A stretch of 64,000 nt of DNA from the NCBI GenBank assembly GCA_963676395.1, contig OY781066.1, positions 2,240,001 through 2,304,000 of the forward strand. Direction: 5' to 3'. The translations under genes and the position numbers were made by a program. This DNA is from a bacterium. Its GTDB lineage: Bacteria > Fidelibacterota > Fidelibacteria > Fidelibacterales > Fidelibacteraceae. Within the stretch, counting starts at the first letter, position 1. Each line of letters opens with the position of its first letter. The notes beneath the pieces were generated by a model. It worked only from the letters and a program-made list of their open reading frames with translations, made no database searches and was not told the origin of the DNA. This document shows positions 1 to 14,933 of this stretch, in pieces.

Positions 1-6
1 GCATTA

Positions 7-1182
7 TTGCATTTTGTTGAGCTAATATTATTTTGTGATAACATATATTTTACACAAATTGAAGGTGAAAAAACAGTTCCTCTTACTAGTAAAATAATTG
101 AATCGTTAATGAAATATGGATGTATTCCAAAAGATAATTTTAATTCTTGTATGTTAAAACCAATAAAATCGAAATATGACGATCATTATGATTTTCATGT
201 AGTCGCGGCAAATAAATGTGCAAATATATTGTATACATTAAAGAATGACAATTTGTTTAAGCAACTACCTAAGTATTTTGATTGTGCTTCTCAACCAGAT
301 GGAGTTAGAATAGACAATATATATAAATTATTAGAATCAAAAGACATTCACGAACCCATTTCTAATGAGTTTTTGTTAGAATTAATTAAGGATGATTTTG
401 TATTGGGTTCCACAAAATCAATTCTTTTTAGTAGTCGAGAATTGCAATTACAGCTAAAACAATTATATAAAAAACCAAATTTTCAATATGATTATTTATT
501 TAGAACAATGTTTAGGATTAAAGCTAATGAGGCTATAGCAAATAAGTTTAATTGCATTTATTCACCGGCACCGCAAAGAGCTATATTTGATCAAATAATC
601 TACAGATCTATATTATCAGATATGAATAAATCAATTTTATCGATCAGAAATGAATTGGGCTTGCGTAAGTATTTTGATGGAGTTTTTAAAAAATATGTTA
701 TAAGCGAGGAATATCCATTTCCTGCTCTTGTGATTGGTATTTTATTAGAGAATAAATTAAATGAACCTATAGAAATGTTGCAATGGGCTTGTAAATATCG
801 TGAGGAAAGCAATGAATTAAACAATATACGAATGTATATAAATGAACTAGAGCGTTTAAATATGACTGGAAATTATTCTGATCAAAAAAACGTTAAAGAT
901 AATATTAAAAATGTGATATATGAAGTAAGACAAAATTTAGATAATAATTTTGTTAAATCAATATTTAGATCATCTCTAAAAAATTTCTTAAGTTTGATTA
1001 ATGTTAACAATGATGGCAATATGACAGATGAAGAAATTGATAATTATTTAAGGTTATTTCGCTCAAAAAAATATGAAAAGATATTACCAACAAATTTTTT
1101 ATCAATTATTACTAATAACTTATTATCTGAGTCAGAATTAGGAGCATGGCTTTCAAGCTCCTTAAAAAGAGAAATATATTAG
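7..1182 (+). CDS. Hypothetical protein, probably 5'-truncated by the window edge; first visible gene of the AT-rich cluster
   Basis: 391-aa ORF whose frame is open back to base 1; no recognisable motif. Confidence 0.75.
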   Translation: MHFVELILFCDNIYFTQIEGEKTVPLTSKIIESLMKYGCIPKDNFNSCMLKPIKSKYDDHYDFHVVAANKCANILYTLKNDNLFKQLPKYFDCASQPDGVRIDNIYKLLESKDIHEPISNEFLLELIKDDFVLGSTKSILFSSRELQLQLKQLYKKPNFQYDYLFRTMFRIKANEAIANKFNCIYSPAPQRAIFDQIIYRSILSDMNKSILSIRNELGLRKYFDGVFKKYVISEEYPFPALVIGILLENKLNEPIEMLQWACKYREESNELNNIRMYINELERLNMTGNYSDQKNVKDNIKNVIYEVRQNLDNNFVKSIFRSSLKNFLSLINVNNDGNMTDEEIDNYLRLFRSKKYEKILPTNFLSIITNNLLSESELGAWLSSSLKREIY

Positions 1183-1229
1183 TAAAATATTATTAATATT
1201 ATTTGGAAAAATTAGATAAAGAGGTCAAA

Positions 1230-1595
1230 ATGAGAAAATTAAAATTTATAATTGATTTGGGTGATTTAGGTAACGATATCGATCCATATGAATTTCAACA
1301 GTTTTTAAAACAATCTAATTATTTGACAACTTGTAAATATTGTCATATTGACAATAAAGATGAAAACGATTTGAGAAGTAAAGATCTTTCGTTGGCAATA
1401 GAAATAACCCTATATGTGATGCCTGTAGTAGAAGGTTCTATTGATTTGATTCAGGAACTTGATGTTAATACATTTATAGATCTACTATTAAAATTAAAAG
1501 GGATTAAAGAGGGACTTGATTTTGTTAAAAATTGTATAGTTGAAGTTAAAGACAAAAATAATGGTAAAATTAGATATGTTGATAAAAAAAAATAA
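1230..1595 (+). CDS. Small hypothetical protein, tentatively EACC1-like (effector-associated constant component)
   Basis: GAGG Shine-Dalgarno before ATG 1230; ~121 aa with central hydrophobic segment LSLAIEITLYVMPVV; overlaps the start of the caspase gene. Confidence 0.5.
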   Translation: MRKLKFIIDLGDLGNDIDPYEFQQFLKQSNYLTTCKYCHIDNKDENDLRSKDLSLAIEITLYVMPVVEGSIDLIQELDVNTFIDLLLKLKGIKEGLDFVKNCIVEVKDKNNGKIRYVDKKK

Positions 1596-3378
1596 GGTAA
1601 AAGATTATGCATTTGTGTATGGAGTGAATGGTCATGAATTAAAATTTTCTGAAATAGATGCATATGATTTTGGAAAATTTTTGATGACTAAAAAATACCT
1701 TAATTATCAGGTGAAGTTTGGTGATAATTGCTATAAAAATGATTATGGTTTTCTATCACAATTCGAAGAAAGGATAAAAGATCTAGAACCTAATTCAAGG
1801 CTTTTATTTTATTTTTCTGGTCATGGTGTTTTTGAAGGAGATCCAAAACAATTTAGTTTTGAAATTGGGAGAGATGAATTTTGTTCATTTAATAGTTTGA
1901 TAAAATCAATTAAAAAATCTGAGGGTGCTTTACAAGAAATATTATTTATTTTTGATTGTTGTCATGCACATGTTATTAAACATGAAATTGAACATTTAAA
2001 TATTATAGATAGTAATAAAGCAAGAATAACTGGTGTGGATTATCAAAAGAGATATCATATACTACTTCCTACAAATTACATTAAAACAGAAACATATGAA
2101 GCATTAATAGATTCCGATAGTTCTTTTACTAAAAATATATCAAAAACAATTGATAAAATAGCTGTTGATTTTTTAAATAAAACTGGGAAAATTACAATCA
2201 AGGATATTAAAGATGCTTACCCTAATCAAAATGATCTTACTAATAGCCCTACCATTCTTGATAGCTTGAATGATGATTTTGTAATCGGTAAAATCGGAGA
2301 ACGGAAATTTGATAAAACATATATTGGTGATAGGGCTTCTCAAATAAACGAATATCTTAATGCATTCAGTGTTGCAGATAATGTTTCTAAAAAATGGACA
2401 GTTAAAGTTCCTTATGGTCCTCATAGTATAATTAAACTTCAAGGACGTTTGTCTAAAATTATAAAAGAACAAGATGAAGAATTTGAAGAATTTGATAAAA
2501 AAGCGGAAAGGAAATATTTTGATGCTATTCAAAATCCTGAATTAGCGCTAGTCAGTAACGCAATATATACATTTCCGTTTTTTATGACTCCATCAAGATT
2601 ACCGTTTTGGGGGGTAATTCCTTATGGGTATCATTTGGCACTAGGAATTTTATATAAAAAAGGCAAAAATAACATTAAATCATTTTCAGAAGAATATTTT
2701 AATAGAGAAATTGTGTTGAGATACAAATATGAACCTAGTAGTAGAGAACAAAAAGAATACAGTGCAATTAAAGATTATCATTGGATCAATGAACTTATTA
2801 ATGGAATTATAGTAAGTGATGTTAAAGGAAAGATTTATTCTAATTCTGGTTATATGTATAGTGAATTAATTCCTCTATTAATTAATTCTTCCCAGGTTGA
2901 TTTTACGCTTGAAAAATTAAATGAATATTTATATGTCATACCAGTTTCTTCAGAGCGAGTAAATAATTATATTTACCCTAAAGAATGTTTGTTAAAAAAA
3001 CATGCAATTGAAAATATTATTGTAGATTATATGGAGGGTAGAGAAAGAAATATTACCCCAACTATTAATGATATCACAATTTTTGATCTTGCACATAAAA
3101 AAAACTTAATTGAAGTACTTAAGCGCAGAGGACTAGAAGAAAGTTATGGATTAATTAGCATGTATCATAATCTCAATATACCGGTTGGTATTGGATTTAG
3201 TTTGAAATCATACAAACTGTTTCAAGATAATAGAAATTTGTGGTCAATGTTGGAAAATGAAGTTAGGGAGTTTTTTATAGAGGCACCTAATAATTGCAAA
3301 TATAATAAGCAAAGAAAAAGAAGAATATTATCGGAATTAAATGATATTGGTATTAAAATAAATTTAAATAACCATTAG
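1576..3378 (+). CDS. Caspase-like (peptidase C14) protease fused to a C-terminal type-2 periplasmic-binding-protein-like (amino-acid-binding) domain
   Basis: Caspase motifs AFVYGVN, LLFYFSGHG (catalytic His) and FIFDCCHA (catalytic Cys); C-terminal PFFMTPSR..PYGY..ALGIL, DITIFD and IPVGIGF align with the adjacent SBP; start could be 1540, 1561 or 1576. Confidence 0.85.
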   Translation: MLIKKNKVKDYAFVYGVNGHELKFSEIDAYDFGKFLMTKKYLNYQVKFGDNCYKNDYGFLSQFEERIKDLEPNSRLLFYFSGHGVFEGDPKQFSFEIGRDEFCSFNSLIKSIKKSEGALQEILFIFDCCHAHVIKHEIEHLNIIDSNKARITGVDYQKRYHILLPTNYIKTETYEALIDSDSSFTKNISKTIDKIAVDFLNKTGKITIKDIKDAYPNQNDLTNSPTILDSLNDDFVIGKIGERKFDKTYIGDRASQINEYLNAFSVADNVSKKWTVKVPYGPHSIIKLQGRLSKIIKEQDEEFEEFDKKAERKYFDAIQNPELALVSNAIYTFPFFMTPSRLPFWGVIPYGYHLALGILYKKGKNNIKSFSEEYFNREIVLRYKYEPSSREQKEYSAIKDYHWINELINGIIVSDVKGKIYSNSGYMYSELIPLLINSSQVDFTLEKLNEYLYVIPVSSERVNNYIYPKECLLKKHAIENIIVDYMEGRERNITPTINDITIFDLAHKKNLIEVLKRRGLEESYGLISMYHNLNIPVGIGFSLKSYKLFQDNRNLWSMLENEVREFFIEAPNNCKYNKQRKRRILSELNDIGIKINLNNH

Positions 3379-3395
3379 CTGTAGGAGAATTAAAT

Positions 3396-4328
3396 ATGGT
3401 TGAGTTAAAAGAAAATCTTAAAAATAATCGTATGATGAGAAATGGTCGTTTTGCTATAGTATTCTCAATAATAGCCTTTTTTATAAGTTTATTATCAATA
3501 TTAGCTTTTACTCCTAATAATAAAATATCAGATAAAAATAATTATATCGGTGTATTTCAAGAAATTAAGAAACACAAAGTATTAAAAATTGGATACGGAG
3601 GTTTCCCTCCATATACAATAGTAAATCCAAATGTTAAAAATTCTGAGGATGAAGTAACCGGGTATTCTATAGATTTAATTAAGGAGATTGCTTCACTAGC
3701 ACAACCGGAGTTGGAAATCGAATGGGTAAGATTTAGTTGGGAAACTATTCAAACTGAGTTGAATTCCGGGAAATTTGATATAATAGCAGATCCAGTATAC
3801 CAAACTATTCCTAGAGCATTTGAATTCGATTTTACAATGCCTTATGCGTATTTTGGTATTGCTGTAGGTGTGGTAAACAAAGATGATGATAGATTTAATA
3901 CATTTTCAGACTTAGATAGAGATGATATAATAATTTCACTTGCAAAAGGTTGGACAACATCTGAGTATGCTGAAAAATATCTTGATAAACCAAAATTTCA
4001 TTTTATTTCTGCAACGGGTGATGCTTTTAATCAGCTTGATGATGTGATTCTAGGGAGAGCTGATGTTGCATTAAATGATGTACCTACAGTTGTACAATAT
4101 GTAAATGCCCATTCTGATGTAGTCAAAAGCGTTTTTATAGAGAATCCACCTTCTAGCGTACCCGGCGGTTTTGTAGTAAGAAAAGGAGAAGTTGATTTAT
4201 TAAACTTTTTGAACACTTCACTATATATACTTATGGCTAATGGTACACTTGAGAGACTAGATGAAAAATGGGAAACATACCACCATATACCAATCAATAC
4301 TAAAGTACCTGGCAGTGGTATAAAATGA
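3396..4328 (+). CDS. Polar amino-acid ABC transporter substrate-binding protein (SBP family 3), N-terminal membrane anchor/signal
   Basis: LKIGYGGFPPY, GYSIDL, SGKFDII, TIPRAFEFDFTMPY, GRADVALND, GTLERLDEKW; AGGAG RBS. Confidence 0.93.
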   Translation: MVELKENLKNNRMMRNGRFAIVFSIIAFFISLLSILAFTPNNKISDKNNYIGVFQEIKKHKVLKIGYGGFPPYTIVNPNVKNSEDEVTGYSIDLIKEIASLAQPELEIEWVRFSWETIQTELNSGKFDIIADPVYQTIPRAFEFDFTMPYAYFGIAVGVVNKDDDRFNTFSDLDRDDIIISLAKGWTTSEYAEKYLDKPKFHFISATGDAFNQLDDVILGRADVALNDVPTVVQYVNAHSDVVKSVFIENPPSSVPGGFVVRKGEVDLLNFLNTSLYILMANGTLERLDEKWETYHHIPINTKVPGSGIK

Positions 4329-4340
4329 TCGGTTATATAT

Positions 4341-5015
4341 ATGCTAAATTATAATTGGGACTTTTCTTTTCTTCTCAGCTATAGAGATGCTTTCTTAAAT
4401 GGTATAGTGGTAACACTTTATGTCTCGCTTATGTCGTTTATAATTGGTACTATTGTTGGCATATTATTTGGTATGTTGATTAAATATATCAAACGGAATT
4501 ATATATTATTATTAATTAATGATGCAATTCGTGCTATACCAATGTTAGTTATGATATTTTTTGTATATTATTTTCCTTTCAAAGCATTATTGGGAATTAA
4601 TCCTCCTAATGCCTTGTATTCCTCAATTATAGCAATTAGTATAAGTCAGGCAGCTTATACCGCTGATATTGTTAGATCGGCAATAAATTCAGTATCATCC
4701 AAAACCATTCAAGGAGCCAAAGCATTAGGTCTGAAAGAAGTTGTTGTTCTTAGATATATAATTCTTCCCGATATAATTAGGCAAACGTTACCTGCGCAAA
4801 TAGCCTTTCTAATTGGCATTTTTAGATTGTCAAGTTTGGCATCAGTTATTGGTGCAAATGAAATCGTATTTGTAGCTCGTACAGCAATATCACAAAATTA
4901 TCGTTCTTTGGAGGCATGGATTGTTGTTGCAATAATTTATATTATATTAATATTGCCTTTAACATTCCTAAGTAGACGCTTAGAAAATTCAAAATGGTTA
5001 AAACGAAGATGGTAA
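4341..5015 (+). CDS. Polar amino-acid ABC transporter permease (HisM/GlnP family)
   Basis: IRAIPMLV, AAYTADIVRSAINSV, EAA-loop QGAKALGL, ILPDIIRQTLP, SSLASVIG. Confidence 0.93.
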   Translation: MLNYNWDFSFLLSYRDAFLNGIVVTLYVSLMSFIIGTIVGILFGMLIKYIKRNYILLLINDAIRAIPMLVMIFFVYYFPFKALLGINPPNALYSSIIAISISQAAYTADIVRSAINSVSSKTIQGAKALGLKEVVVLRYIILPDIIRQTLPAQIAFLIGIFRLSSLASVIGANEIVFVARTAISQNYRSLEAWIVVAIIYIILILPLTFLSRRLENSKWLKRRW

Positions 5016-5773
5016 ATAAAGAATTAATTTTAAAATGTAAGGATATTCAACATTCTTTTGGCTCGAATAAAGTTTTAAACTCATTAAACTTGGAATTGGT
5101 TAAAGGAGAAATAAAAGCAATTATTGGTGCTAGCGGTTGTGGAAAAACAACTCTATTAAAAAATATTAACTTGCTAATACCACCACAAAAGGGTGAATTG
5201 CAGTTATCAAAACAAGTTTATTTTAATAATGGTGAAATAATTTATGAACCATATGAATTATGTAGAAGTATTGGATTGGTTTTTCAGGATTTTAATTTAT
5301 TCCCGAATTTAACATGTCTAAATAACATTACTTTAGCTTTGATAAAGAATTTAGGATTTACAAAAGAAAATGCAACAGAAACATCCCTAAGAATTGCTGA
5401 AAAATTACATATACAAGATGTGCTTAAAAAGTATCCTGGGGATTTAAGTGGAGGTCAGGCTCAAAGGTTAAGCATTGCAAGAGCAATAGTACTGAAACCT
5501 AAAATATTATTGTTAGATGAGATTACTTCTGCTTTAGATCCTAATACTACACAAAATGTTATTGATGCAATAAAAGATGTTAAACTATTACTTCCAGAAT
5601 TATCAATAATTATTGTAACTCATCATATACAATTTGCTGAAAGATTTGCTGATAATATTGCATTTATGTTCGATGGTAGAATTATTGAAGAACTACCTGC
5701 GAGAGAATTTAGTACGAATTGTAAGAATTCTAAAACGCAAGAATTCGTTAAAGTGGTCGCAGGAATTCATTAA
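5009..5773 (+). CDS. Polar amino-acid ABC transporter ATP-binding protein (GlnQ family)
   Basis: Walker A GASGCGKTT, VFQDFNLFP, LSGGQAQR, LLLDEITSALDP, VTHH; alternative start 4994. Confidence 0.93.
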   Translation: MVNKELILKCKDIQHSFGSNKVLNSLNLELVKGEIKAIIGASGCGKTTLLKNINLLIPPQKGELQLSKQVYFNNGEIIYEPYELCRSIGLVFQDFNLFPNLTCLNNITLALIKNLGFTKENATETSLRIAEKLHIQDVLKKYPGDLSGGQAQRLSIARAIVLKPKILLLDEITSALDPNTTQNVIDAIKDVKLLLPELSIIIVTHHIQFAERFADNIAFMFDGRIIEELPAREFSTNCKNSKTQEFVKVVAGIH

Positions 5774-5777
5774 AAAT

Positions 5778-6800
5778 ATGTTTATTAAAATTAATAATTG
5801 TGAATTGCCTATAATTGAGAGTTTTATTGCTGATAATTCCAATAATATTTATTGTCATAATGTTTCAAGTGATGTTAGGCAAAGTAAATATTTTGATTTT
5901 ATGTGTTTTTATCTGTTTTTTATAGAATATGAGAAGAACAATATTGAAAGATATAAGGCAATACTGAAATTACTTGATACTTGCACTATTGGAAAATTTA
6001 TAGCGGGATTTCTTCAGAACATTCCAAACAATAAATTAAAAAACTATTTATCAGTTTGGCCCCAGACCAATATAGCCATTGCAGAATCTCAATTGATTAA
6101 AAATGTTTTCAAAGGAATTTTAGATGAATTTGGGAATGTCAGATATAGTCTGACAGATATTGGTACAGGAGATGGAGTGCTTTTAAAGGAAATTATTGAT
6201 ATGTTTTATGAAAAAGGCTATCCATATCTTAAAGTTACCGCAATAGATCAAAATAAAGATTTATTATCTCTTGCTATGAATGAAATCCTTAATTATAAGT
6301 CTAGTTTAAATGATTTGAATATAGTGCATGGAAACATGTTTGAAATAAAGTACGAAAAATATTTTAATAATGATGATATTAAAATAATCAATGCTTCATC
6401 GGTTCTCCATGAATTACCGAGAAGGGATAAGATTACTATGCTCGAAAAACTTAAAAAATATTCTGATATTATTGTTATATGTGAGCTTGAAAGTAATCAT
6501 GATATTGAATGTGTTGCTTGTATTCCTTTATTGTTGTCAACATATAATTTTTATAGTGCTTTAATTCATGATACTTTGGAATCTGACATAGATAGAGGTA
6601 TGTCAAAAAATTATATACTAAATTATCTCATTAAAGAACTTTTCGATATAAATACTAAGCCTTATCAAGATAGAGTTAACTATCATATGACAAAAAATCA
6701 ATGGTTAGATATATTTAGAATATGTGAATTTGATGTTAAAATACATGAAAAATCAATTTCGAATGATAAACCAAAAATTAATGTTTTCGTACTGAGGTGA
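5778..6800 (+). CDS. Class I SAM-dependent methyltransferase, bacterial GRAS-like
   Basis: SAM motif LTDIGTGDG, LKVTAID, INASSVLHEL, ELESNHD, FYSALIHD, RVNYHMTKNQW; ATG 5778 lies just after the ATPase stop (ORF track extends to 5634). Confidence 0.75.
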   Translation: MFIKINNCELPIIESFIADNSNNIYCHNVSSDVRQSKYFDFMCFYLFFIEYEKNNIERYKAILKLLDTCTIGKFIAGFLQNIPNNKLKNYLSVWPQTNIAIAESQLIKNVFKGILDEFGNVRYSLTDIGTGDGVLLKEIIDMFYEKGYPYLKVTAIDQNKDLLSLAMNEILNYKSSLNDLNIVHGNMFEIKYEKYFNNDDIKIINASSVLHELPRRDKITMLEKLKKYSDIIVICELESNHDIECVACIPLLLSTYNFYSALIHDTLESDIDRGMSKNYILNYLIKELFDINTKPYQDRVNYHMTKNQWLDIFRICEFDVKIHEKSISNDKPKINVFVLR

Positions 6801-7555
6801 AAATGGTAAGAAAGATTATTTGTTTAATTATTATGCAAATATTCGTTATAAATATTTTGTTTGCTCAAGTTAATGAGTCTTCTACAGAAATAAGTAATAA
6901 TAGCTTTCAATTTGGTGTTTCAAATTATACGGTTTCAAAATATATTCCACGATCTGGCACTCAAGTCGGGCTTGGATCGGCAAATCAAACTTTAGGTTAT
7001 TTATCATATAAAAACCTAACCATATATTTTTGGATGAATTATGGATTCCCGGATGAAACGATAACTGAATTTGATTATGGAATTGAGTACAAACATAATC
7101 TTTATTCAGATACTCATTTAGGTGAAATCAGTATAGTGGGTGGTGCACACAAGTATATTTTTCCTGTAGCCCAATTGAACAACTTTATATTAGAAGGAAA
7201 AATACTTTATAATGGTATTTTAAAAACAGATATTCTCTATACGCATTGTTTTAGAAGTAATAACGTTGATTCAGGAAGTAGAATTTATATTGAATTGCGA
7301 AAACCAGTAATATTATTTGATAAATCATTTCAAATTCAATTAATTCCATTAATGTCAAGTGCATATCATTGGGGTTTTTATGGTTGGGAAAAGTGGGGGC
7401 AATTAACTGCTGGAATCAAGTCAAAGTTTGTTTTCGATAATATCTCTATAATTGCATACGCAAATTATCAATATAGTTCAGATGATATTAGTATAGGGCA
7501 TGTAACTGAAAAGTTATTCCCATATTTTGGAATTGGAATAGAATATAATAAATAA
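6797..7555 (+). CDS. Outer-membrane beta-barrel protein, TorF / TIGR02001-like putative porin
   Basis: Signal peptide (..ILFAQ), VSKYIPRSG, TEFDYGIEY, alternating beta-strand pattern, C-terminal YFGIGIEY; GTGA overlap with upstream stop. Confidence 0.6.
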   Translation: MKMVRKIICLIIMQIFVINILFAQVNESSTEISNNSFQFGVSNYTVSKYIPRSGTQVGLGSANQTLGYLSYKNLTIYFWMNYGFPDETITEFDYGIEYKHNLYSDTHLGEISIVGGAHKYIFPVAQLNNFILEGKILYNGILKTDILYTHCFRSNNVDSGSRIYIELRKPVILFDKSFQIQLIPLMSSAYHWGFYGWEKWGQLTAGIKSKFVFDNISIIAYANYQYSSDDISIGHVTEKLFPYFGIGIEYNK

Positions 7556-7583
7556 CTTGGGAACAAAACGATAAGGATAAAAA

Positions 7584-8363
7584 ATGGAAACAAAATATAA
7601 AATACATATTGGATATATATTTGCTATTCTCTTAGCAGTAATAGTTTATTTATCTGTTAAAGATTTTTCAAGTAATCCTGAATTAGTTGATTATATTTCA
7701 TTTGCGTCAACTGTCGCATCTTTAATTCTTGCTCTATTAGCAATTATTTATTCTTTTGTTTCGAATAATGCACTTTCGAAAAATATCGGAATTATTAATG
7801 AAGCAACAACAAATTTAAAAGAGAATTCTGATAGTCTAGATAGAGTATCAAAAGTTATTATTCATGAAATTCCTAATGCGATAAAAGAAATGGATCAAAA
7901 ACTAGATAGTACGCAAAACCTTGTCAATAATTTAGGATTAAATGATGAAAATGATAAGATTTCTCCCCATAAAAATTCAACATCAAAACTTACTATGGTG
8001 CAAAAGTTTATAGATGTGTCATCATTAACAGGATTATTTTTGATTTATGCGGTGTTTTTAGCGAATTATAAAAGTTTACCATTAAATATTGAAGAAATAG
8101 CTGTTGAGATTGGTCAGAGTAACGACGAATATGTATGGGGGTATTTTGTTGCATCTTCTTCCGCGGGGTTATTTGATTTTAATGCTAAGGATAAAGTATG
8201 TAACATTAAAACTATCCATTCTGAAATTAAAAAAGATGACCTAATTGAAAAAATTTCACTTAGAGGAAAAGAAATAGAAAGAAAAATTAAAGCGGATAAT
8301 CCCGATTCATCATATAGTTGGAAAAATAAATTTGAAGCAATTGAAAAGTATTTTGAAGATTGA
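7584..8363 (+). CDS. Hypothetical membrane protein (two N-terminal TM helices, coiled coil, C-terminal domain)
   Basis: Two hydrophobic helices, then heptad-like region; AAGGA RBS. Confidence 0.75.
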   Translation: METKYKIHIGYIFAILLAVIVYLSVKDFSSNPELVDYISFASTVASLILALLAIIYSFVSNNALSKNIGIINEATTNLKENSDSLDRVSKVIIHEIPNAIKEMDQKLDSTQNLVNNLGLNDENDKISPHKNSTSKLTMVQKFIDVSSLTGLFLIYAVFLANYKSLPLNIEEIAVEIGQSNDEYVWGYFVASSSAGLFDFNAKDKVCNIKTIHSEIKKDDLIEKISLRGKEIERKIKADNPDSSYSWKNKFEAIEKYFED

Positions 8364-8388
8364 TCTTAATTTCTTTGCTGATTAAATT

Positions 8389-8421
8389 AAAAAGGCTCCA
8401 AACTCTGGAGCCTCTTCGTTT
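8389..8421. terminator. Likely bidirectional intrinsic terminator between convergent genes
   Basis: AAAAA-GGCTCCA-aactc-TGGAGCC-tcttcgtttt. Confidence 0.6.
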
Positions 8422-11706: not shown

Positions 11707-12607
11707 GCATGTCTCGATGTTTATATTCCGTAATGAAAATACCCGTGAAGATCAAGAGCATGCCAATATAATGATTAAGGCTTAAAAGTTCACCATAAAA
11801 AATGTATCCCAGAAAGACGGCTACAAGGGGCGTGAGATAGGCTGAAAGTGCCAATTTGACCACCGAAATATGCTGTAATAGCCAAAAGTACAAGAAAAAA
11901 GCCATGGCGGAGCAGATGATACCAAGATATAACTCAGAAAAAATTAATTTTGGCGTTAACGTAATGCTTGGAATTCCTTCAAGCACAAAGCTTGAAGCAA
12001 GAAGCAAGATAGCTGCGAGTCCCATACCAAAGGTATTTAAGATGAGTGGATCCAGATCCTTTCCATCACGCTTGATAAGCACATTGGGCAGGGAGTTGAC
12101 CAGCACGGAACCGAGAATAAAGACAATGCCAATCATTTGAGTGCTTTCGTTATCAAGCATACCTTGTGAGTAGAAAAGAAGGATGATACCTACTAGTCCG
12201 ATAAGCAATCCCAATAGCTTTTTAAGCGTAAAGGGTTCTTTTTTAGGCATAAGTATGGATGAAAAAAGCGCTACCGCAAGCGGGAAGAACGAAAAAATAA
12301 TGCTGGCCAAGCCCGCATTGATATGCTGCTGACCCAGAAGTGAAAAAATATGTCCTAACCCCATCATAAATACAGCATACATAACAATAAGGTAAATATG
12401 TCGTTTTTCGAGCTTGAATTTGGGTCTGCGGATGAGCATCACGATCACAAACACCAGCGCCCCGATGCTTTGCCTGATCGCACCTATCCACAGCGGAGCT
12501 AAGCCTTCCTGCAGGGCCATTTTGTTGAATATCCAGGATGAGCCAAACATAAAAACGTTTGCGAAAAAGGCCAGATATAATATGATGCGAGCAGGCTTAG
12601 TGGGCAT
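11672..12607 (-). CDS. EamA/DMT family transporter
   Basis: About 10 TM helices in two EamA repeats; GSSW, AGLASII, YLTPLVAVFLG; probable start MPTKPAR at 12607. Confidence 0.88.
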   Translation of the reverse strand: MPTKPARIILYLAFFANVFMFGSSWIFNKMALQEGLAPLWIGAIRQSIGALVFVIVMLIRRPKFKLEKRHIYLIVMYAVFMMGLGHIFSLLGQQHINAGLASIIFSFFPLAVALFSSILMPKKEPFTLKKLLGLLIGLVGIILLFYSQGMLDNESTQMIGIVFILGSVLVNSLPNVLIKRDGKDLDPLILNTFGMGLAAILLLASSFVLEGIPSITLTPKLIFSELYLGIICSAMAFFLYFWLLQHISVVKLALSAYLTPLVAVFLGYIFYGELLSLNHYIGMLLIFTGIFITEYKHRDMHASNKLRKTGH

Positions 12608-13445
12608 GCAGAGCTTTCTTGAGGGCTTTGCCGGTATTGCGCATATTTTCCAACCAATTTTCATTCAAGGGATCAAGAGCAATCACATGGGCATCGATCT
12701 CCTTGGCGATCACATCAAGCTGTTCGGAGGAAAATTCCTTTTGTACAAAGATTACATGAATATCGTGTTCTTTTGCATGCTCGATAAGATGTGCAAGCTG
12801 CTGAGTGGATGGACCTTTATGCTCGTGACGGATAGAGGCTTGCTTAACACCGTAATCACGACAAAAATAACCCCAGGATGGGTGGAGTGTCATAAATTCA
12901 CCACCTTGCACCTCTTTTAGATCATTTTTTAATTCTTCATCCAGTTTGGTGATATCCTTCAATAAAGCTTGAAGATTTGTTTCGAATTCATCTTTACGTT
13001 CAGGCCAGATAGCTGACAATTGCTCACTGATCCTTATGGCAGCAACTTTCATATAGCGCGGTGAAAGCCAGAGATGCGCATCTCCCGGGATAATATCCAT
13101 GTTTTCAGCCATGGAAACCGTTAGAACTTCGGGATGTTCTTTGAGGTAGGCGTTAATATGCTTCAGCTCAAAATGGAAATTGGGGTGACCGTTTTTTACA
13201 TAAAGTTTACACTCATGCAATGATCTCACTTGAGCCGCTGTTGGCGCATAGGTGGGAGGAGCAGAGCCGGGGGGGATCATGATGGTCACCGGTGTTGCTT
13301 CACCGGCAATGCGTTTTACCAAGTAAGCCTGCGGAGGGATACTTACGCAGATATCGGTTGTGGGGGCCGTTTCGCAAGAAACGGTAATAAGGCTCATCAT
13401 TATAATGAGCGCAAGAATGATGATTTTGTATGTGTTGTTTTTCAT
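12597..13445 (-). CDS. Zn/Mn ABC transporter substrate-binding lipoprotein (ZnuA/TroA family)
   Basis: Lipobox TVSC, VSIPPQAYLVKRIAG, DAHLWLSP, HPSWGYF, LDPL. Confidence 0.9.
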   Translation of the reverse strand: MKNNTYKIIILALIIMMSLITVSCETAPTTDICVSIPPQAYLVKRIAGEATPVTIMIPPGSAPPTYAPTAAQVRSLHECKLYVKNGHPNFHFELKHINAYLKEHPEVLTVSMAENMDIIPGDAHLWLSPRYMKVAAIRISEQLSAIWPERKDEFETNLQALLKDITKLDEELKNDLKEVQGGEFMTLHPSWGYFCRDYGVKQASIRHEHKGPSTQQLAHLIEHAKEHDIHVIFVQKEFSSEQLDVIAKEIDAHVIALDPLNENWLENMRNTGKALKKALHAH

Positions 13446-13673
13446 GATGTATTATATGAAAAAAATACAAATTGGAGAAGAAAAATTCTTTAACGGAATC
13501 AAGACGCAGCGTTGCTATATCTCGGACAATAAATCGATTTTTACATTTGTTCTATATAATGCGTGACAACCAAATGAGTCGCAACCCTGCTACAACTTAA
13601 TATTATGTTGTTTCAATTACATTGTAATGATAAAAGCATATCATTTTTCAATTTTCCATTATAAATTATTCGC

Positions 13674-14933
13674 ATGAAATTACGATATAAATTAATCATC
13701 ATATTTTCTTTATTCATTGCCACTCTCAATGCCGGTATTCTTATCCCCATGGATAAAAATCAAAGCAATCATCTTAAAGCTTACGGAATTGCTTTTTATG
13801 CTTTGCAACAGGGAATTGATGTAGAATGGCTTTTAAATTATCAGGGCGGATCCTTCTATTTGGATTATCGGCAAGCCATTGAAAAAGAATGTCTGTTACG
13901 CGGTGTTTCTTTCAAGAAAATCTCATCGAGCGATTATTCGGCCATCAGTGCGGAGATAGAGGTCAATAATATGAGTGTGGTACTTCTTGAAAAAGCACCC
14001 GAGATCGCCGTTTATACGCCGCCAAATAAGCTTCCTTGGGATGATGCCGTGACGATGGCACTGACCTATGCCGAGATCCCTTATGAAAAGATCTACGACA
14101 GAGAAATATTAAAAGGTGATCTAAGTAAGTACGATTGGTTACACTTGCACCATGAGGATTTTACGGGACAATACGGAAAATTTTACGGTAATTATCGTAA
14201 TGCCGCATGGTACATTCAGGAGCAGCAAACTCAGGAAGCCCTTGCGGCAGAATTGGGGTTTGCCAAGGTTTCTAAATTAAAACTGGCGGTAGCAAAGAAG
14301 ATCGACGCCTATGTAAAGGGCGGTGGGTTTTTATTTGCCATGTGTGCGGCGACGGATTCCTATGAAATCGCTTTAGCGGCCGAAAACACCGATATCTGCC
14401 ATCCTGTTTTTGATCATGATCCCATTGATCCTGATTATGCCTCACATATGGATTTTACATCCGATTATGCTTTTAAAGATTATAAATTAAAGACCGATCC
14501 GAATATCTATGAATATTCCGATATCGATATTCCTCCTTCATATCAAGGACTGAGTCTGGATCCCTCGCGGGATTATTTTTCGCTTTTTGAATTTTCTGCA
14601 AAATTCGATCCCGTACCGACCATGCTGACCCAAAATCACGAATCCCTGATCAAAGGTTTTATGGGACAAACGACTTCTTTTAACCGTAAACGGCTTAAAA
14701 AACATGTCCTGATCATGGGAGAAAGCAAAAATACAGATCGCGTGAAATATATTCATGGAAATGCAGGTAAGGGTACCTGGACTTATTATGGTGGGCATGA
14801 TCCGGAAGACTATCGACACTATGTCGGAGATCCGCCAACCAATTTAGACCTCCATAAGAATAGTCCCGGCTATCGCTTGATATTGAATAATGTGCTTTTC
14901 CCGGCAGCTAAGAAACAGGAAAGAAAAACGTAG
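13674..14933 (+). CDS. Conserved secreted protein of the FCB-group family often labelled asparagine synthetase B (GATase-like fold, function unknown)
   Basis: LIPMD..QSNHLKAYG, WLLNYQGGSF, WDDAVTMALTYAEIPY, DWLHLHHEDFTGQYGKFY, SPGYRLILNNVLFPAA. Confidence 0.8.
   Translation: MKLRYKLIIIFSLFIATLNAGILIPMDKNQSNHLKAYGIAFYALQQGIDVEWLLNYQGGSFYLDYRQAIEKECLLRGVSFKKISSSDYSAISAEIEVNNMSVVLLEKAPEIAVYTPPNKLPWDDAVTMALTYAEIPYEKIYDREILKGDLSKYDWLHLHHEDFTGQYGKFYGNYRNAAWYIQEQQTQEALAAELGFAKVSKLKLAVAKKIDAYVKGGGFLFAMCAATDSYEIALAAENTDICHPVFDHDPIDPDYASHMDFTSDYAFKDYKLKTDPNIYEYSDIDIPPSYQGLSLDPSRDYFSLFEFSAKFDPVPTMLTQNHESLIKGFMGQTTSFNRKRLKKHVLIMGESKNTDRVKYIHGNAGKGTWTYYGGHDPEDYRHYVGDPPTNLDLHKNSPGYRLILNNVLFPAAKKQERKT

Follow-up and report, generated by a model that had tools for sequence, protein, structure and literature searches.

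We describe a gene that encodes a caspase-like peptidase joined to a predicted cytoplasmic domain resembling type II periplasmic binding proteins (PBP2-like, hereafter PBP2L). It lies in a 64,000-nucleotide stretch of bacterial DNA (the window) and heads a mobile cassette that also encodes an ABC importer and a methyltransferase. A caspase and a cytoplasmic clamshell at the head of such a cassette suggest that a small molecule taken up by the importer controls the protease, and we consider it reasonably probable that such a molecule binds PBP2L and thereby switches the attached output domain. A full-text literature search found no published description of the caspase-PBP2L architecture or of the cassette, and PADLOC holds no model of this system.

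Organization of the locus

The fusion gene and the features around it, all on the plus strand, are as follows.

1..1182, plus strand: 3' part of an orphan gene of 424 aa whose start lies 92 nt upstream of the window, co-oriented with the fusion gene (L001 14908-16182)
1203..1595, plus strand: orphan gene of 130 aa, co-oriented, its 3' end overlapping the start of the fusion gene (ORF list)
1576..3378, plus strand: fusion gene of 600 aa, caspase-like peptidase plus predicted cytoplasmic PBP2-like sensor domain (ORF list)
1603..2295, plus strand: predicted caspase domain (clan CD, C14-like), residues ~10-240 of the fusion protein (Pfam, PADLOC, Foldseek, catalytic dyad)
2392..3360, plus strand: predicted PBP2-like (Venus-flytrap) domain, residues ~273-595 of the fusion protein (AF2, Foldseek, VIA)
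3396..4328, plus strand: membrane-anchored family-3 solute-binding protein (SBP) of 310 aa, TM helix at residues 19-37 (SBP_bac_3, E 1.8e-24)
4341..5015, plus strand: ABC importer permease of 224 aa (BPD_transp_1, Pfam E 2e-16)
4994..5773, plus strand: ABC ATPase of 259 aa (ABC_tran, E 5e-31)
5778..6800, plus strand: class I SAM-dependent methyltransferase-like protein, 340 aa from ATG 5778 (Methyltransf_31, E 4e-6)
6797..7555, plus strand: secreted protein of 252 aa with a signal-like N-terminal segment, Gly/aromatic-rich (homologues, hydrophobic N-terminus)
7584..8363, plus strand: final gene in the low-GC block, product of 259 aa with three hydrophobic segments (TM segments)
8393..8413, plus strand: terminator-like hairpin that closes the co-oriented block and the low-GC island (terminator scan)

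The fusion gene is a single plus-strand open reading frame that stops at 3378 and has three candidate starts, TTG 1540, ATG 1561 and ATG 1576, the last of which lines up with the start of the homologue P0002 in an alignment. Its product is predicted from sequence to be soluble and cytoplasmic: because no hydrophobic segment was found in it (maximum 19-residue Kyte-Doolittle mean 1.08), it appears to have neither a signal peptide nor a TM helix, as the initial annotation had claimed. That annotation had also placed an SBP directly downstream, and the gene at 3396-4328 indeed encodes one, which is one of only two SBP_bac_3 matches in the genome. The cassette SBP has AncCDT-1 as its nearest solved sequence (E 7e-31) and is 42-70% identical to 15 other cassette SBPs; the TM anchor is present in 16/16 of these proteins. 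The permease and the ATPase are likewise related to their counterparts elsewhere, at 48-70% and 41-56% identity to 10 cassette permeases and 10 cassette ATPases, respectively.

As listed, the methyltransferase ORF uses TTG 5634 as its start, which makes it overlap the ATPase gene. In 8 other cassettes the corresponding position holds a homologous gene (E 3e-15 to 5e-35); a DIGxGDG motif is invariant throughout, and the best PDB match is the methyltransferase MM_2633 (E 6e-7). We considered a GRAS identity for this protein and rejected it: PF03514 stayed below threshold (E 5.7e-4 and 19.3 bits for the window copy, E 7.7e-5 and 22.2 bits for that of locus L017, against a cut-off of 27), and a profile of the methyltransferase family searched against the PDB returned ordinary class I methyltransferases and no GRAS entry. 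An article on bacterial GRAS proteins by Zhang, Iyer and Aravind, which appeared in Bioinformatics in 2012, is said possibly to discuss the neighbourhoods of bacterial GRAS-like methylases.

The 252-aa secreted protein, which matched no Pfam or NCBIfam model, has a homologue in the corresponding place of both L010 and L013 (36-41% identity, E 1e-39 to 1e-43); it is possibly an outer-membrane beta-barrel, and a secreted beta-rich protein is added in some Bacteroidota-type copies of the cassette. Membership of the 259-aa protein encoded at 7584..8363 is uncertain: it gave a weak match to SLATT_4 (E 0.006) and had no homologue in the other cassette loci. The GC content of positions 1-8420 is 0.277, compared with 0.398 for the rest of the window. 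The hairpin at the end of this island is one of a number of terminator-like sites in the region that does not exceed shuffled expectation, and neither did the results of a promoter scan of the region. Upstream, the 130-aa orphan matched no family in Pfam, NCBIfam or PADLOC, the 424-aa orphan likewise had no family match, and neither has a homologue in the other cassette loci. The larger of the two has only 2 homologues among 5.8 billion clusters, and an ESM Atlas look-up returned only 'hypothetical protein' clusters for it. We have considered both orphans as candidate substrates of the caspase.

The caspase-like half

The N-terminal half has the fold of a caspase-type cysteine peptidase and keeps the His83/Cys129 dyad intact; its predicted activity is proteolysis. 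The catalytic His83 lies in an FSGHG motif (nt 1822-1824) and the catalytic Cys129 (nt 1960-1962) in a DCCH motif whose cysteine pair, Cys128/Cys129, occupies nt 1957-1962. In the AF2 model of the full-length protein (pLDDT 83.2, pTM 0.73), His83 comes right after the strand at residues 75-81 and Cys129 right after the strand at residues 121-127, and residues 147-156, beyond the cysteine strand, form a low-confidence insert. The intact dyad reported in the initial annotation was confirmed, as both residues are invariant in the alignment with P0002 and PF00656 (Peptidase_C14) scored above its cut-off, a marginal pass at 22.5 bits against 21.4 (E 1e-4, residues 20-152). The PADLOC 'caspase' model also matched (E 3e-7), and homologues outscored the fusion protein for Peptidase_C14 (E 7e-13 for P0002, 1e-6 for P0003 and 2e-8 for P0004). 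When the full-length model was searched with Foldseek, the matches, all at probability 1.00, included MALT1 (3v4o, TMt 0.62), caspase-3 (7xn6, 0.65), the yeast metacaspase Yca1 (4f6o, 0.54) and GSU0716 (3bij, 0.58).

The PBP2-like half

A linker helix at residues 247-262 leads into the C-terminal half, which is modelled as a type II PBP (Venus-flytrap) fold closest to family-3 SBPs and the ligand-binding domains (LBDs) of ionotropic glutamate receptors (iGluRs). A non-PBP fold would have spoken against the earlier proposal of a PBP2-like domain here; instead, the AF2 model of this half is confident (pLDDT 85.8, pTM 0.87), and Foldseek matched it only to type II periplasmic-binding-protein folds, the best being mostly family-3 SBPs and iGluR LBDs, with GlnPQ SBD1 among the top matches (E 5.5e-5). 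A VIA search of 48,161 chains agrees, since all of the top 50 rows are type II PBP folds with Z 8.2-10.4 and 196-240 aligned residues that cover most of each target (199/212 residues of 2pyy, for example). The structural matches also include the PBP-fold enzymes Thi5 and cyclohexadienyl dehydratase, and MltF.

Across the PBP2L family ten residues are invariant (Y280, F315, F333, P334, R341, E430, D504, H531, G538 and G540). Four of them, R341 (nt 2596-2598), E430 (nt 2863-2865), D504 (nt 3085-3087) and H531 (nt 3166-3168), are invariant in 15/15 diverse PBP2L domains, and R140, T187 and D228 are invariant in 16/16 cassette SBPs. In family-3 SBPs such as HisJ, LAO and GlnBP, an Arg and an Asp hold the alpha-carboxylate and alpha-amino groups of the ligand. 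In the PBP2L model R341 follows the third strand, and D504 is an acidic residue that follows a lobe-2 strand; from this matching topological position we predict that the two would serve as carboxylate and amino holders. R341, E430, D504 and H531 presumably occupy the loops, and the beginnings of helices, with which class F SBPs touch their ligand, a mapping made from SBP structures. A homodimer prediction for the PBP2L domain scored 0.01 against a mark of 0.42, a value uninformative on binding either way.

By sequence, the two families could not be connected. BLASTP of the C-terminal half against the neighbouring SBP gave E 0.073 over 74 residues at 24% identity, which is not significant; a 45-sequence PBP2L profile reached a probability of 0.2% in hhalign against that SBP and 0.3% against a profile of the 16 cassette SBPs, a comparison run in global and local modes and negative in both; and hmmsearch between PBP2L and the SBPs gave ~0 bits in both directions. 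No Pfam or NCBIfam SBP model matched the C-terminal half at E up to 1, PDB sequence searches with it returned no match, looking up the domain in the ESM Atlas yielded nothing usable, and a whole-genome scan with PF00497 found two places, neither of them the fusion ORF. The initial annotation had aligned the C-terminal half, motif by motif and in order, with the adjacent SBP. That alignment has no statistical significance (BLASTP E 0.073, hhalign below 1%, HMM ~0 bits), yet the motifs it picked are the conserved ones of both families and occupy corresponding points along the succession of strands and helices in the model. As no sequence relationship to SBPs is detectable, the case for an amino-acid-like ligand comes solely from fold and topological position.

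A putative sensor family with exchanged N-terminal modules

Among the 149 non-self proteins listed, 44 matched the C-terminal half. Their N-terminal partners show that the caspase is one of several: 13 of the 44 matches listed carry Patatin, 3 carry Peptidase_C14, 3 carry an HTH-type domain and 25 carry nothing that we recognised. The caspase-PBP2 architecture proposed earlier recurs (3/44 matches listed), with the correction that the caspase is not the sole partner and that patatin is the commoner one (13/44). One caspase (P0002) matches caspase_w_EACC1 (E 5e-18). The patatin halves match the CBASS lipase model NF041079 (E 2.5e-10 to 7e-7) as well as PADLOC phospholipase effector models, in both cases below curated cut-offs. 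P0043 combines PBP2L with HTH_31 (E 3e-9), the only solid HTH among the PBP2L proteins, and a further subtype, at loci L003, L009 and L011, is anchored by an N-terminal TM helix. By eye we had also read the N-termini of short variants (L014, L017, L018, L006 and L020) as RHH or HTH domains, a reading that Pfam did not support at E up to 0.1. No Pfam model matched the C-terminal domain in any of the 44 matches listed, and NCBIfam and PADLOC are likewise without a model. PBP2L thus behaves as a portable sensor module and represents a sizeable family that has no model in Pfam, NCBIfam or PADLOC.

Conservation and spread of the cassette

The cassette is conserved, rare, patchily distributed across phyla and horizontally mobile. 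An SBP_bac_3 gene lies directly 3' of the PBP2L gene in 4/5 genome loci and 16/17 metagenome loci (20/22 in total), the permease and ATPase genes then follow in all loci long enough to show both (3/3 and 7/7), and a homologous methyltransferase gene comes next in 8 of those 10 long loci. This synteny (SBP in 20/22, permease and ATPase in 10/10) strongly supports the link between the fusion and the adjacent importer that had been proposed from the single locus. It also makes it very improbable that the fusion protein works alone beside an unrelated amino-acid transporter. Chance proximity has in its favour only the view from one locus and the lack of detectable sequence homology between sensor and SBP; against it stand an adjacency kept across at least four host groups, SBPs that are closely related to one another and all carry the TM anchor, and loci that are not copies of one recent element, the identity of their PBP2L domains to that of the window being 22-38%.

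Conservation differs between the components. Across cassettes, identity is 42-70% for the SBP and permease, compared with 22-38% for PBP2L and 21-30% for the methyltransferase; the better conservation of the SBP and permease fits one shared imported core molecule. Unusually conserved transporter parts, strict synteny with the transporter and the membrane-tethered PBP2L subtype with its N-terminal TM helix (L003, L009 and L011) would also suit a PBP2L that has no free ligand and responds to the ABC transporter itself, by docking on its cytoplasmic face or by reading its transport cycle; the effector would then answer transporter activity or interference with it. MalK-MalT and the flux-sensing Bce-type systems are the comparison here. 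We judge such coupling distinctly improbable: the invariant PBP2L residues are polar or aromatic and are predicted to lie at canonical cleft positions rather than on a surface patch, the ATPase is a bare 259-aa nucleotide-binding domain with no regulatory domain for docking, and the conserved methyltransferase would be left without a role.

The hosts of PBP2L belong to diverse phyla and to at least four groups (Balneola, Niveispirillum, Bacteroidetes and Planctomycetaceae), and 0/400 other genomes of the window's own phylum contained a PBP2L. Some copies are flanked by transposases, an integrase, a recombinase, T4SS genes, AbiEii or HepT; others (L002, L008 and L019) have housekeeping flanks, and the neighbourhoods are not consistently defence islands. 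A scan found no PBP2L relatives on viral contigs.

In another account, a conjugated or modified amino acid is imported and PBP2L presents the substrate, or is itself catalytic, feeding a hydrolase (a caspase-type amidase or patatin-type esterase) that frees a usable product. Both recurrent partners of PBP2L are hydrolases, several loci have ordinary metabolic flanks, PBP-fold enzymes and MltF occur among the structural matches (MltF, cyclohexadienyl dehydratase and Thi5 being the analogues), and the nearest solved relatives of the SBP lie on the cyclohexadienyl-dehydratase lineage. We nevertheless regard such a pathway as rather improbable, because PBP2L is also found on an HTH domain (P0043) and on a bare TM anchor, which better fit a sensor, because conflict systems supply the closest counterparts of the caspase and patatin domains (caspase_w_EACC1 and the CBASS lipase), and because a rare, patchy and mobile spread would be unusual for a nutrient pathway.

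Proposed mechanism

Sensing of an imported molecule, the reading we favour, follows the order of the cassette: PBP2L protein, membrane-anchored family-3 SBP, permease, ABC ATPase and SAM methyltransferase. The outward-facing SBP would capture a small amino-acid-like molecule, which the ABC importer would carry into the cytoplasm, and the methyltransferase might make, mature or erase its active form. The molecule would then dock in the PBP2L cleft, which the invariant Tyr280, Arg341, Glu430, Asp504 and His531 are predicted to line, and closure of the clamshell would switch the attached output domain, here the predicted protease. The analysis itself shows the two folds, the dyad, the cytoplasmic location, the exchange of effectors, the conserved gene order and the mobility. 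We infer that PBP2L binds a small molecule, that the adjacent importer supplies it and that binding activates rather than inhibits the output, as we do the biological role, for which cell suicide, defence and signalling between cells are candidates.

A more specific version casts the cassette as an externally triggered cell-fate switch. The importer, together with an outer-membrane channel in diderms, would take up an amino-acid-derived signal from other cells, for example lysed or infected kin; the fast-evolving methyltransferase would set or erase its active form; and the fast-evolving sensor would fire a caspase, patatin or other output, giving community-level suicide or alarm signalling without a nucleotide second messenger. 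In this full form the idea is speculative, and we think it unlikely.

Comparison with known systems

Ligand-gated bacterial death effectors, in CBASS, Thoeris, Pycsar and type III CRISPR, answer nucleotide messengers made inside the infected cell, and SAVED-CHAT is a signal-activated caspase-like protease. In type IV Thoeris, according to a recent report, a TIR protein is paired with a caspase-like protein (10.64898/2025.12.08.692795). The fusion protein resembles the proteases of SAVED-CHAT, CRISPR, CBASS and Thoeris in coupling a clan CD caspase fold, by fusion or as a separate partner, to a sensor of small molecules, and it shares with SAVED-CHAT, CBASS and Thoeris effectors an effector slot that can be exchanged for patatin-type lipases. 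It differs from the latter in its sensor, which has a predicted type II PBP fold in place of a SAVED, CARF or TIR-product receptor. SAVED, CARF, cyclase and cas genes had no match in the fusion protein, its neighbours or the related loci, and a TIR partner, the mark of type IV Thoeris, had none in the window cassette or its flanks. With an ABC importer and a methyltransferase linked to the sensor and no signal generator nearby, the signal would be of external origin or methylated rather than a nucleotide messenger. The patatin halves of other PBP2L fusions resemble CBASS lipases of the CapV type, but these fusions have no CD-NTase partner and their scores fall below curated cut-offs.

With family-3 (class F) SBPs and iGluR LBDs, PBP2L shares a type II fold of two lobes (Z up to 10.4 over ~200-240 aligned residues), and by topological position its invariant Arg and invariant acidic residue would lie where those proteins hold the alpha-carboxylate and alpha-amino groups; the joining of a clamshell to an output module is a further parallel with iGluRs. 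Unlike family-3 SBPs, PBP2L has no SBP_bac_3 profile or sequence match, and the fusion protein is predicted to be cytoplasmic, with no signal peptide. PBP2L also carries ~100 extra residues in lobe 2 that the SBPs and iGluR LBDs lack, and its output is an enzyme rather than a transporter or a channel.

LysR-type regulators offer a functional parallel, in that a cytoplasmic type II PBP sensor drives an N-terminal output, and some PBP2L proteins have an N-terminal HTH. The effector-binding domains of CatM and BenM match PBP2L with Z 8.9 and 8.4, a likeness at the level of the fold only, and no LysR_substrate or LysR HTH profile in Pfam matched the fusion protein. In contrast to these regulators, the output attached to PBP2L is a protease or lipase and the gene is tied to a dedicated importer.

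The inferred logic, in which a dedicated or shared ABC importer feeds a cytoplasmic receptor with or without a modifying enzyme in between, has counterparts in bacterial communication. The Lsr system for AI-2 combines ABC import, modification by LsrK and sensing by LsrR, and RRNPP and arbitrium systems combine import through Opp with a cytoplasmic receptor. Unlike the Lsr and RRNPP systems, the cassette is built from unrelated protein families, and its outputs include potentially lethal enzymes and not just transcription control.

Implications

In the cassette, a Venus-flytrap sensor with a dedicated importer and a methyltransferase is tied to effectors of the caspase-like and patatin kinds. 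PBP2L is a sizeable unannotated sensor family whose clear invariant residues can be mutated, and the cassette, a compact six-gene unit transferable to a laboratory strain, makes the idea of sensing an imported molecule directly testable. If that idea is true, an imported external signal, or a methylated amino-acid-like one, would stand upstream of a caspase, and a glutamate-receptor-type clamshell that governs a caspase would be of evolutionary interest.

The fusion gene and its island

The fusion open reading frame runs on the + strand to a stop at 3378, with candidate starts at TTG 1540, ATG 1561 and ATG 1576; the last, which yields 600 aa, aligns with the first residue of P0002, which retains the caspase half and is the nearest homologue over the full length. 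Genes in the surrounding region (~1–8420) are all co-oriented, and its GC of 0.277 lies below that of the remaining window (0.398) and of the 2.34-Mb genome as a whole (0.381).

Features of the low-GC region
1–1182 (begins 92 nt before the window), +, orphan gene, 424 aa
1203–1595, +, orphan gene, 130 aa, its end overlapping the fusion gene start
1576–3378, +, fusion gene
3396–4328, +, TM-anchored SBP_bac_3 protein
4341–5015, +, permease
4994–5773, +, ABC ATPase
5778–6800, +, class I SAM methyltransferase
6797–7555, +, secreted protein, 252 aa
7584–8363, +, 259-aa protein with three hydrophobic segments, last gene of the island
8393–8413, terminator-like hairpin at the end of the region

Profile searches, including PADLOC, returned no family match for either orphan protein, and comparison across related loci revealed no conservation of the two genes with the downstream cassette; the 424-aa protein has just two homologues (46–50% identity) among 5.8 billion clusters. 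At the other end of the island, the 259-aa protein has no homologue in the other related loci and weakly matches SLATT_4 (E 0.006), SLATT-type domains being a kind of membrane effector domain found in conflict systems. The T9SS sorting domain is matched 74 times in the genome, which indicates a Bacteroidota-type diderm host.

A caspase-like half joined to a periplasmic-binding-protein fold

Pfam Peptidase_C14 matches the fusion protein narrowly above threshold (22.5 versus 21.4 bits) and the PADLOC caspase model matches it at 3e-7. In three homologues (P0002, P0003 and P0004) the C14 matches range from E 7e-13 to 1e-6; those to the NCBIfam model 'caspase, EACC1-associated type' range from 5e-18 to 2e-9 and are all under that model's cut-off. 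The dyad residues His83 (SGHG) and Cys129 (DCCH) are invariant in the alignment with P0002, and in a full-length model (pLDDT 83.2, pTM 0.73) each is preceded by a core strand, with a low-confidence insert (residues 147–156) after the catalytic-Cys strand. Foldseek finds this model to resemble MALT1, yeast metacaspase, caspase-3 and the bacterial GSU0716 protein (TMt 0.54–0.65).

The C-terminal half is matched by none of the Pfam, NCBIfam or PADLOC models, and a PDB sequence search with it returned nothing. The initial annotation had aligned its motifs with the neighbouring SBP; this alignment is not significant (BLASTP E 0.073; hhalign 0.2% and 0.3%), and hmmsearch gave ~0 bits in both directions. 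The type II PBP (Venus-flytrap) fold proposed there is nevertheless borne out by a confident model and by two structural searches that agree on it. Built from a 45-sequence alignment, the model of residues 221–600 has pLDDT 85.8 and pTM 0.87. Among its top Foldseek matches in the PDB (lowest E 5.5e-5), GlnPQ SBD1, proteins that bind glutamine, arginine, glutamate or opines, and iGluR ligand-binding domains predominate. TM-scores are low and rmsd is high, which would fit hinge differences and ~100 extra residues predicted in lobe 2. In a Foldseek-independent search (VIA) against 48,161 chains, the best 50 rows are type II PBP folds only (Z 10.4 to 8.2), including LysR effector-binding domains (Z 8.9 and 8.4); since best Z scores of 7–8 are common for unrelated models, the argument for the fold rests on the uniformity of this list and the agreement of the two methods. 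Most of these alignments span nearly the whole target domain. We refer to this sensor-domain family as PBP2L. It has its fold in common with family-3 SBPs, iGluR LBDs and LysR effector domains, but the fusion protein differs from SBP_bac_3 members in that their profile does not match it and their extracytoplasmic location does not apply to it.

PBP2L carries varied output modules

Searched with a profile, a set of 1.84 billion representatives yielded 2,647 matches (E ≤ 1e-3). Of the 149 listed matches other than the protein itself, 105 align to the caspase half only and 44 to the C-terminal half; the N-terminal modules of these 44 are Peptidase_C14 (3), Patatin (13), HTH-type (3; HTH_31 at 3e-9 in one, the two others weak) or unrecognised (25). 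The patatin halves are CBASS-lipase-like, with scores under curated cut-offs. In a further subtype (L003 665–2596, L009 1491–3520 and L011 550–2599) the PBP2L protein has a TM helix at its N-terminus, and a gene for a conserved 4-TM protein (206–222 aa, 28–35% identity between loci) lies just 5' of the PBP2L gene.

Fifteen diverse PBP2L domains have in common the invariant residues Y280, F315, A324, F333, P334, R341, G346, G357, E430, D504, H531, G538, G540, G592 and I593. In the secondary structure of the model, Y280 comes after strand 1, R341 sits between strands three and four of lobe 1, E430 is at the start of the helix that succeeds the first strand of lobe 2, and D504 is at the end of a lobe-2 strand. 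By strand order, we take these four predicted positions to correspond to ligand-contacting elements of class F SBPs (HisJ, LAO, GlnBP).

A conserved importer–methyltransferase cassette

Pattern-seeded scans recovered 22 related loci, 5 from species-representative genomes and 17 from metagenomes, a set that under-samples the true range of the family because discovery relied on two peptide patterns, and in which near-duplicates (L016/L017; L019/L004; L021/L022/L006) bring the number of independent loci nearer to 17. In 4 of the 5 genome loci and 16 of the 17 from metagenomes, the gene directly 3' of the PBP2L gene encodes an SBP_bac_3 protein, the exceptions being L005, a weak match lacking an adjacent SBP gene, and L020, where the contig ends ~200 nt past the gene. 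Permease and ATPase genes come next in all 10 loci of sufficient length, and a methyltransferase homologous to that of the window (E 3e-15 to 5e-35) is present in 8 of these 10. The notion that fusion gene and importer are neighbours by chance is contradicted by these counts, and we give it almost no weight. Two other loci, L010 and L013, also carry the 252-aa gene.

A TM anchor is present in each of the 16 cassette SBPs, which also have many invariant residues in common, including Y73, T74, R140, T187 and D228. Identity to the window's proteins is 42–70% for the SBP, 48–70% for the permease and 41–56% for the ATPase, a reversal of the usual ABC transporter order, in which the ATPase is the better conserved; PBP2L (22–38%) and the methyltransferase (21–30%) diverge fastest. 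The nearest solved relative of the cassette SBP is AncCDT-1, a reconstructed amino-acid-binding ancestor (E 7e-31). Apart from the cassette SBP, the source genome has a single SBP_bac_3 match, in an 809-aa ORF (C1:2014025–2014402).

Sub-threshold matches to the plant-type GRAS family were seen for the methyltransferases of the window (5778–6800, E 5.7e-4) and L017 (11219–12358, E 7.7e-5), and one member of the set formed by these two and L009 5914–6966 matches an EgtD-like histidine methyltransferase family (E 2e-6); such sequence matches hint at a small-molecule or amino-acid substrate. In L008, a patatin-type cassette, an ADP-ribosylglycohydrolase gene (12377–13297, E 1.5e-45) directly follows the methyltransferase gene.

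Distribution and genomic context

Cassette hosts include Balneola, Niveispirillum and Bacteroidetes, Phycisphaerales and Planctomycetaceae MAGs. The source genome holds one PBP2L copy; none was detected in a sample of 400 further genomes of its phylum, 21 of them of the same genus, or in a scan of viral contigs.

Flanks of cassette loci
L003: IS66 and another transposase
L010: rve integrase and IS200
L009: TrbC pilin
L018: serine recombinase, T4SS coupling protein, HepT and AbiEii
L002, L008, L019: ordinary housekeeping genes
L001 (the source genome's stretch reaching upstream of the window), 13215–14553: AAA/ABC-type ATPase like GajA, PtuA and LmuB (PADLOC E ~2e-7), adjoining the window copy upstream
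L001, 3661–10861 (G000:C1:2228661–2235861): second co-oriented low-GC block, 4–11 kb upstream of the window

These mixed flanks, of mobile-element, toxin, defence and housekeeping genes, mark the cassette as a mobile, accessory unit and tie it only in part to defence islands. The GajA/PtuA-like ATPase appears to be split between two overlapping ORFs (151 aa and 323 aa) and is probably a frameshifted defence ATPase. The second block encodes an FRG-domain protein, an Opp-type ABC ATPase, an SBP_bac_5 protein, two permeases, a SIR2_2 protein and a radical-SAM/SPASM enzyme. Here another importer adjoins a conflict-type effector (SIR2), possibly as a parallel import-and-sense or RiPP-linked system.

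Proposed mechanism

Structure prediction, conservation and synteny lead us to favour, with some confidence, a model in which the cassette is an import-and-sense switch. The conserved outward-facing SBP and importer would supply a small amino-acid-like molecule, whose active form the methyltransferase would make, mature or erase; the PBP2L cleft would bind it, and clamshell closure would control the N-terminal module, here the caspase-like protease. The structural matches of PBP2L include PBP-fold enzymes, as would suit an uptake-and-hydrolysis pathway with the PBP fold as substrate presenter or as catalyst; we regard this as unlikely. We think it similarly improbable that PBP2L reads the transporter itself rather than free ligand.

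In its logic, the proposed switch resembles the import-dependent cytoplasmic sensing of the Lsr and RRNPP systems, but the cassette lacks their defining features. The proposed signal-gated caspase-like effector has counterparts in SAVED-CHAT, although the cassette has no SAVED, CARF or cyclase component, and in type IV Thoeris (10.64898/2025.12.08.692795), from which the cassette differs by having no TIR component. Profile searches of the cassette, its flanks and the related loci found no SAVED, CARF, TIR or cyclase components. A full-text literature search of incomplete coverage found no description of the caspase-PBP2L architecture or of the cassette. New here are a sensor family that lacks annotation and a conserved cassette that had gone unremarked; the kind to which they would belong, ligand-gated effectors, is already known.

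The nearest relatives of the caspase and patatin halves are conflict-system versions, and the fusion of one sensor to varied outputs is the pattern of CARF, SAVED and WYL sensors in conflict systems. Together, these sequence relationships favour a role for the cassette in suicide, defence or alarm, while for the HTH outputs of PBP2L a signalling circuit would fit equally well.
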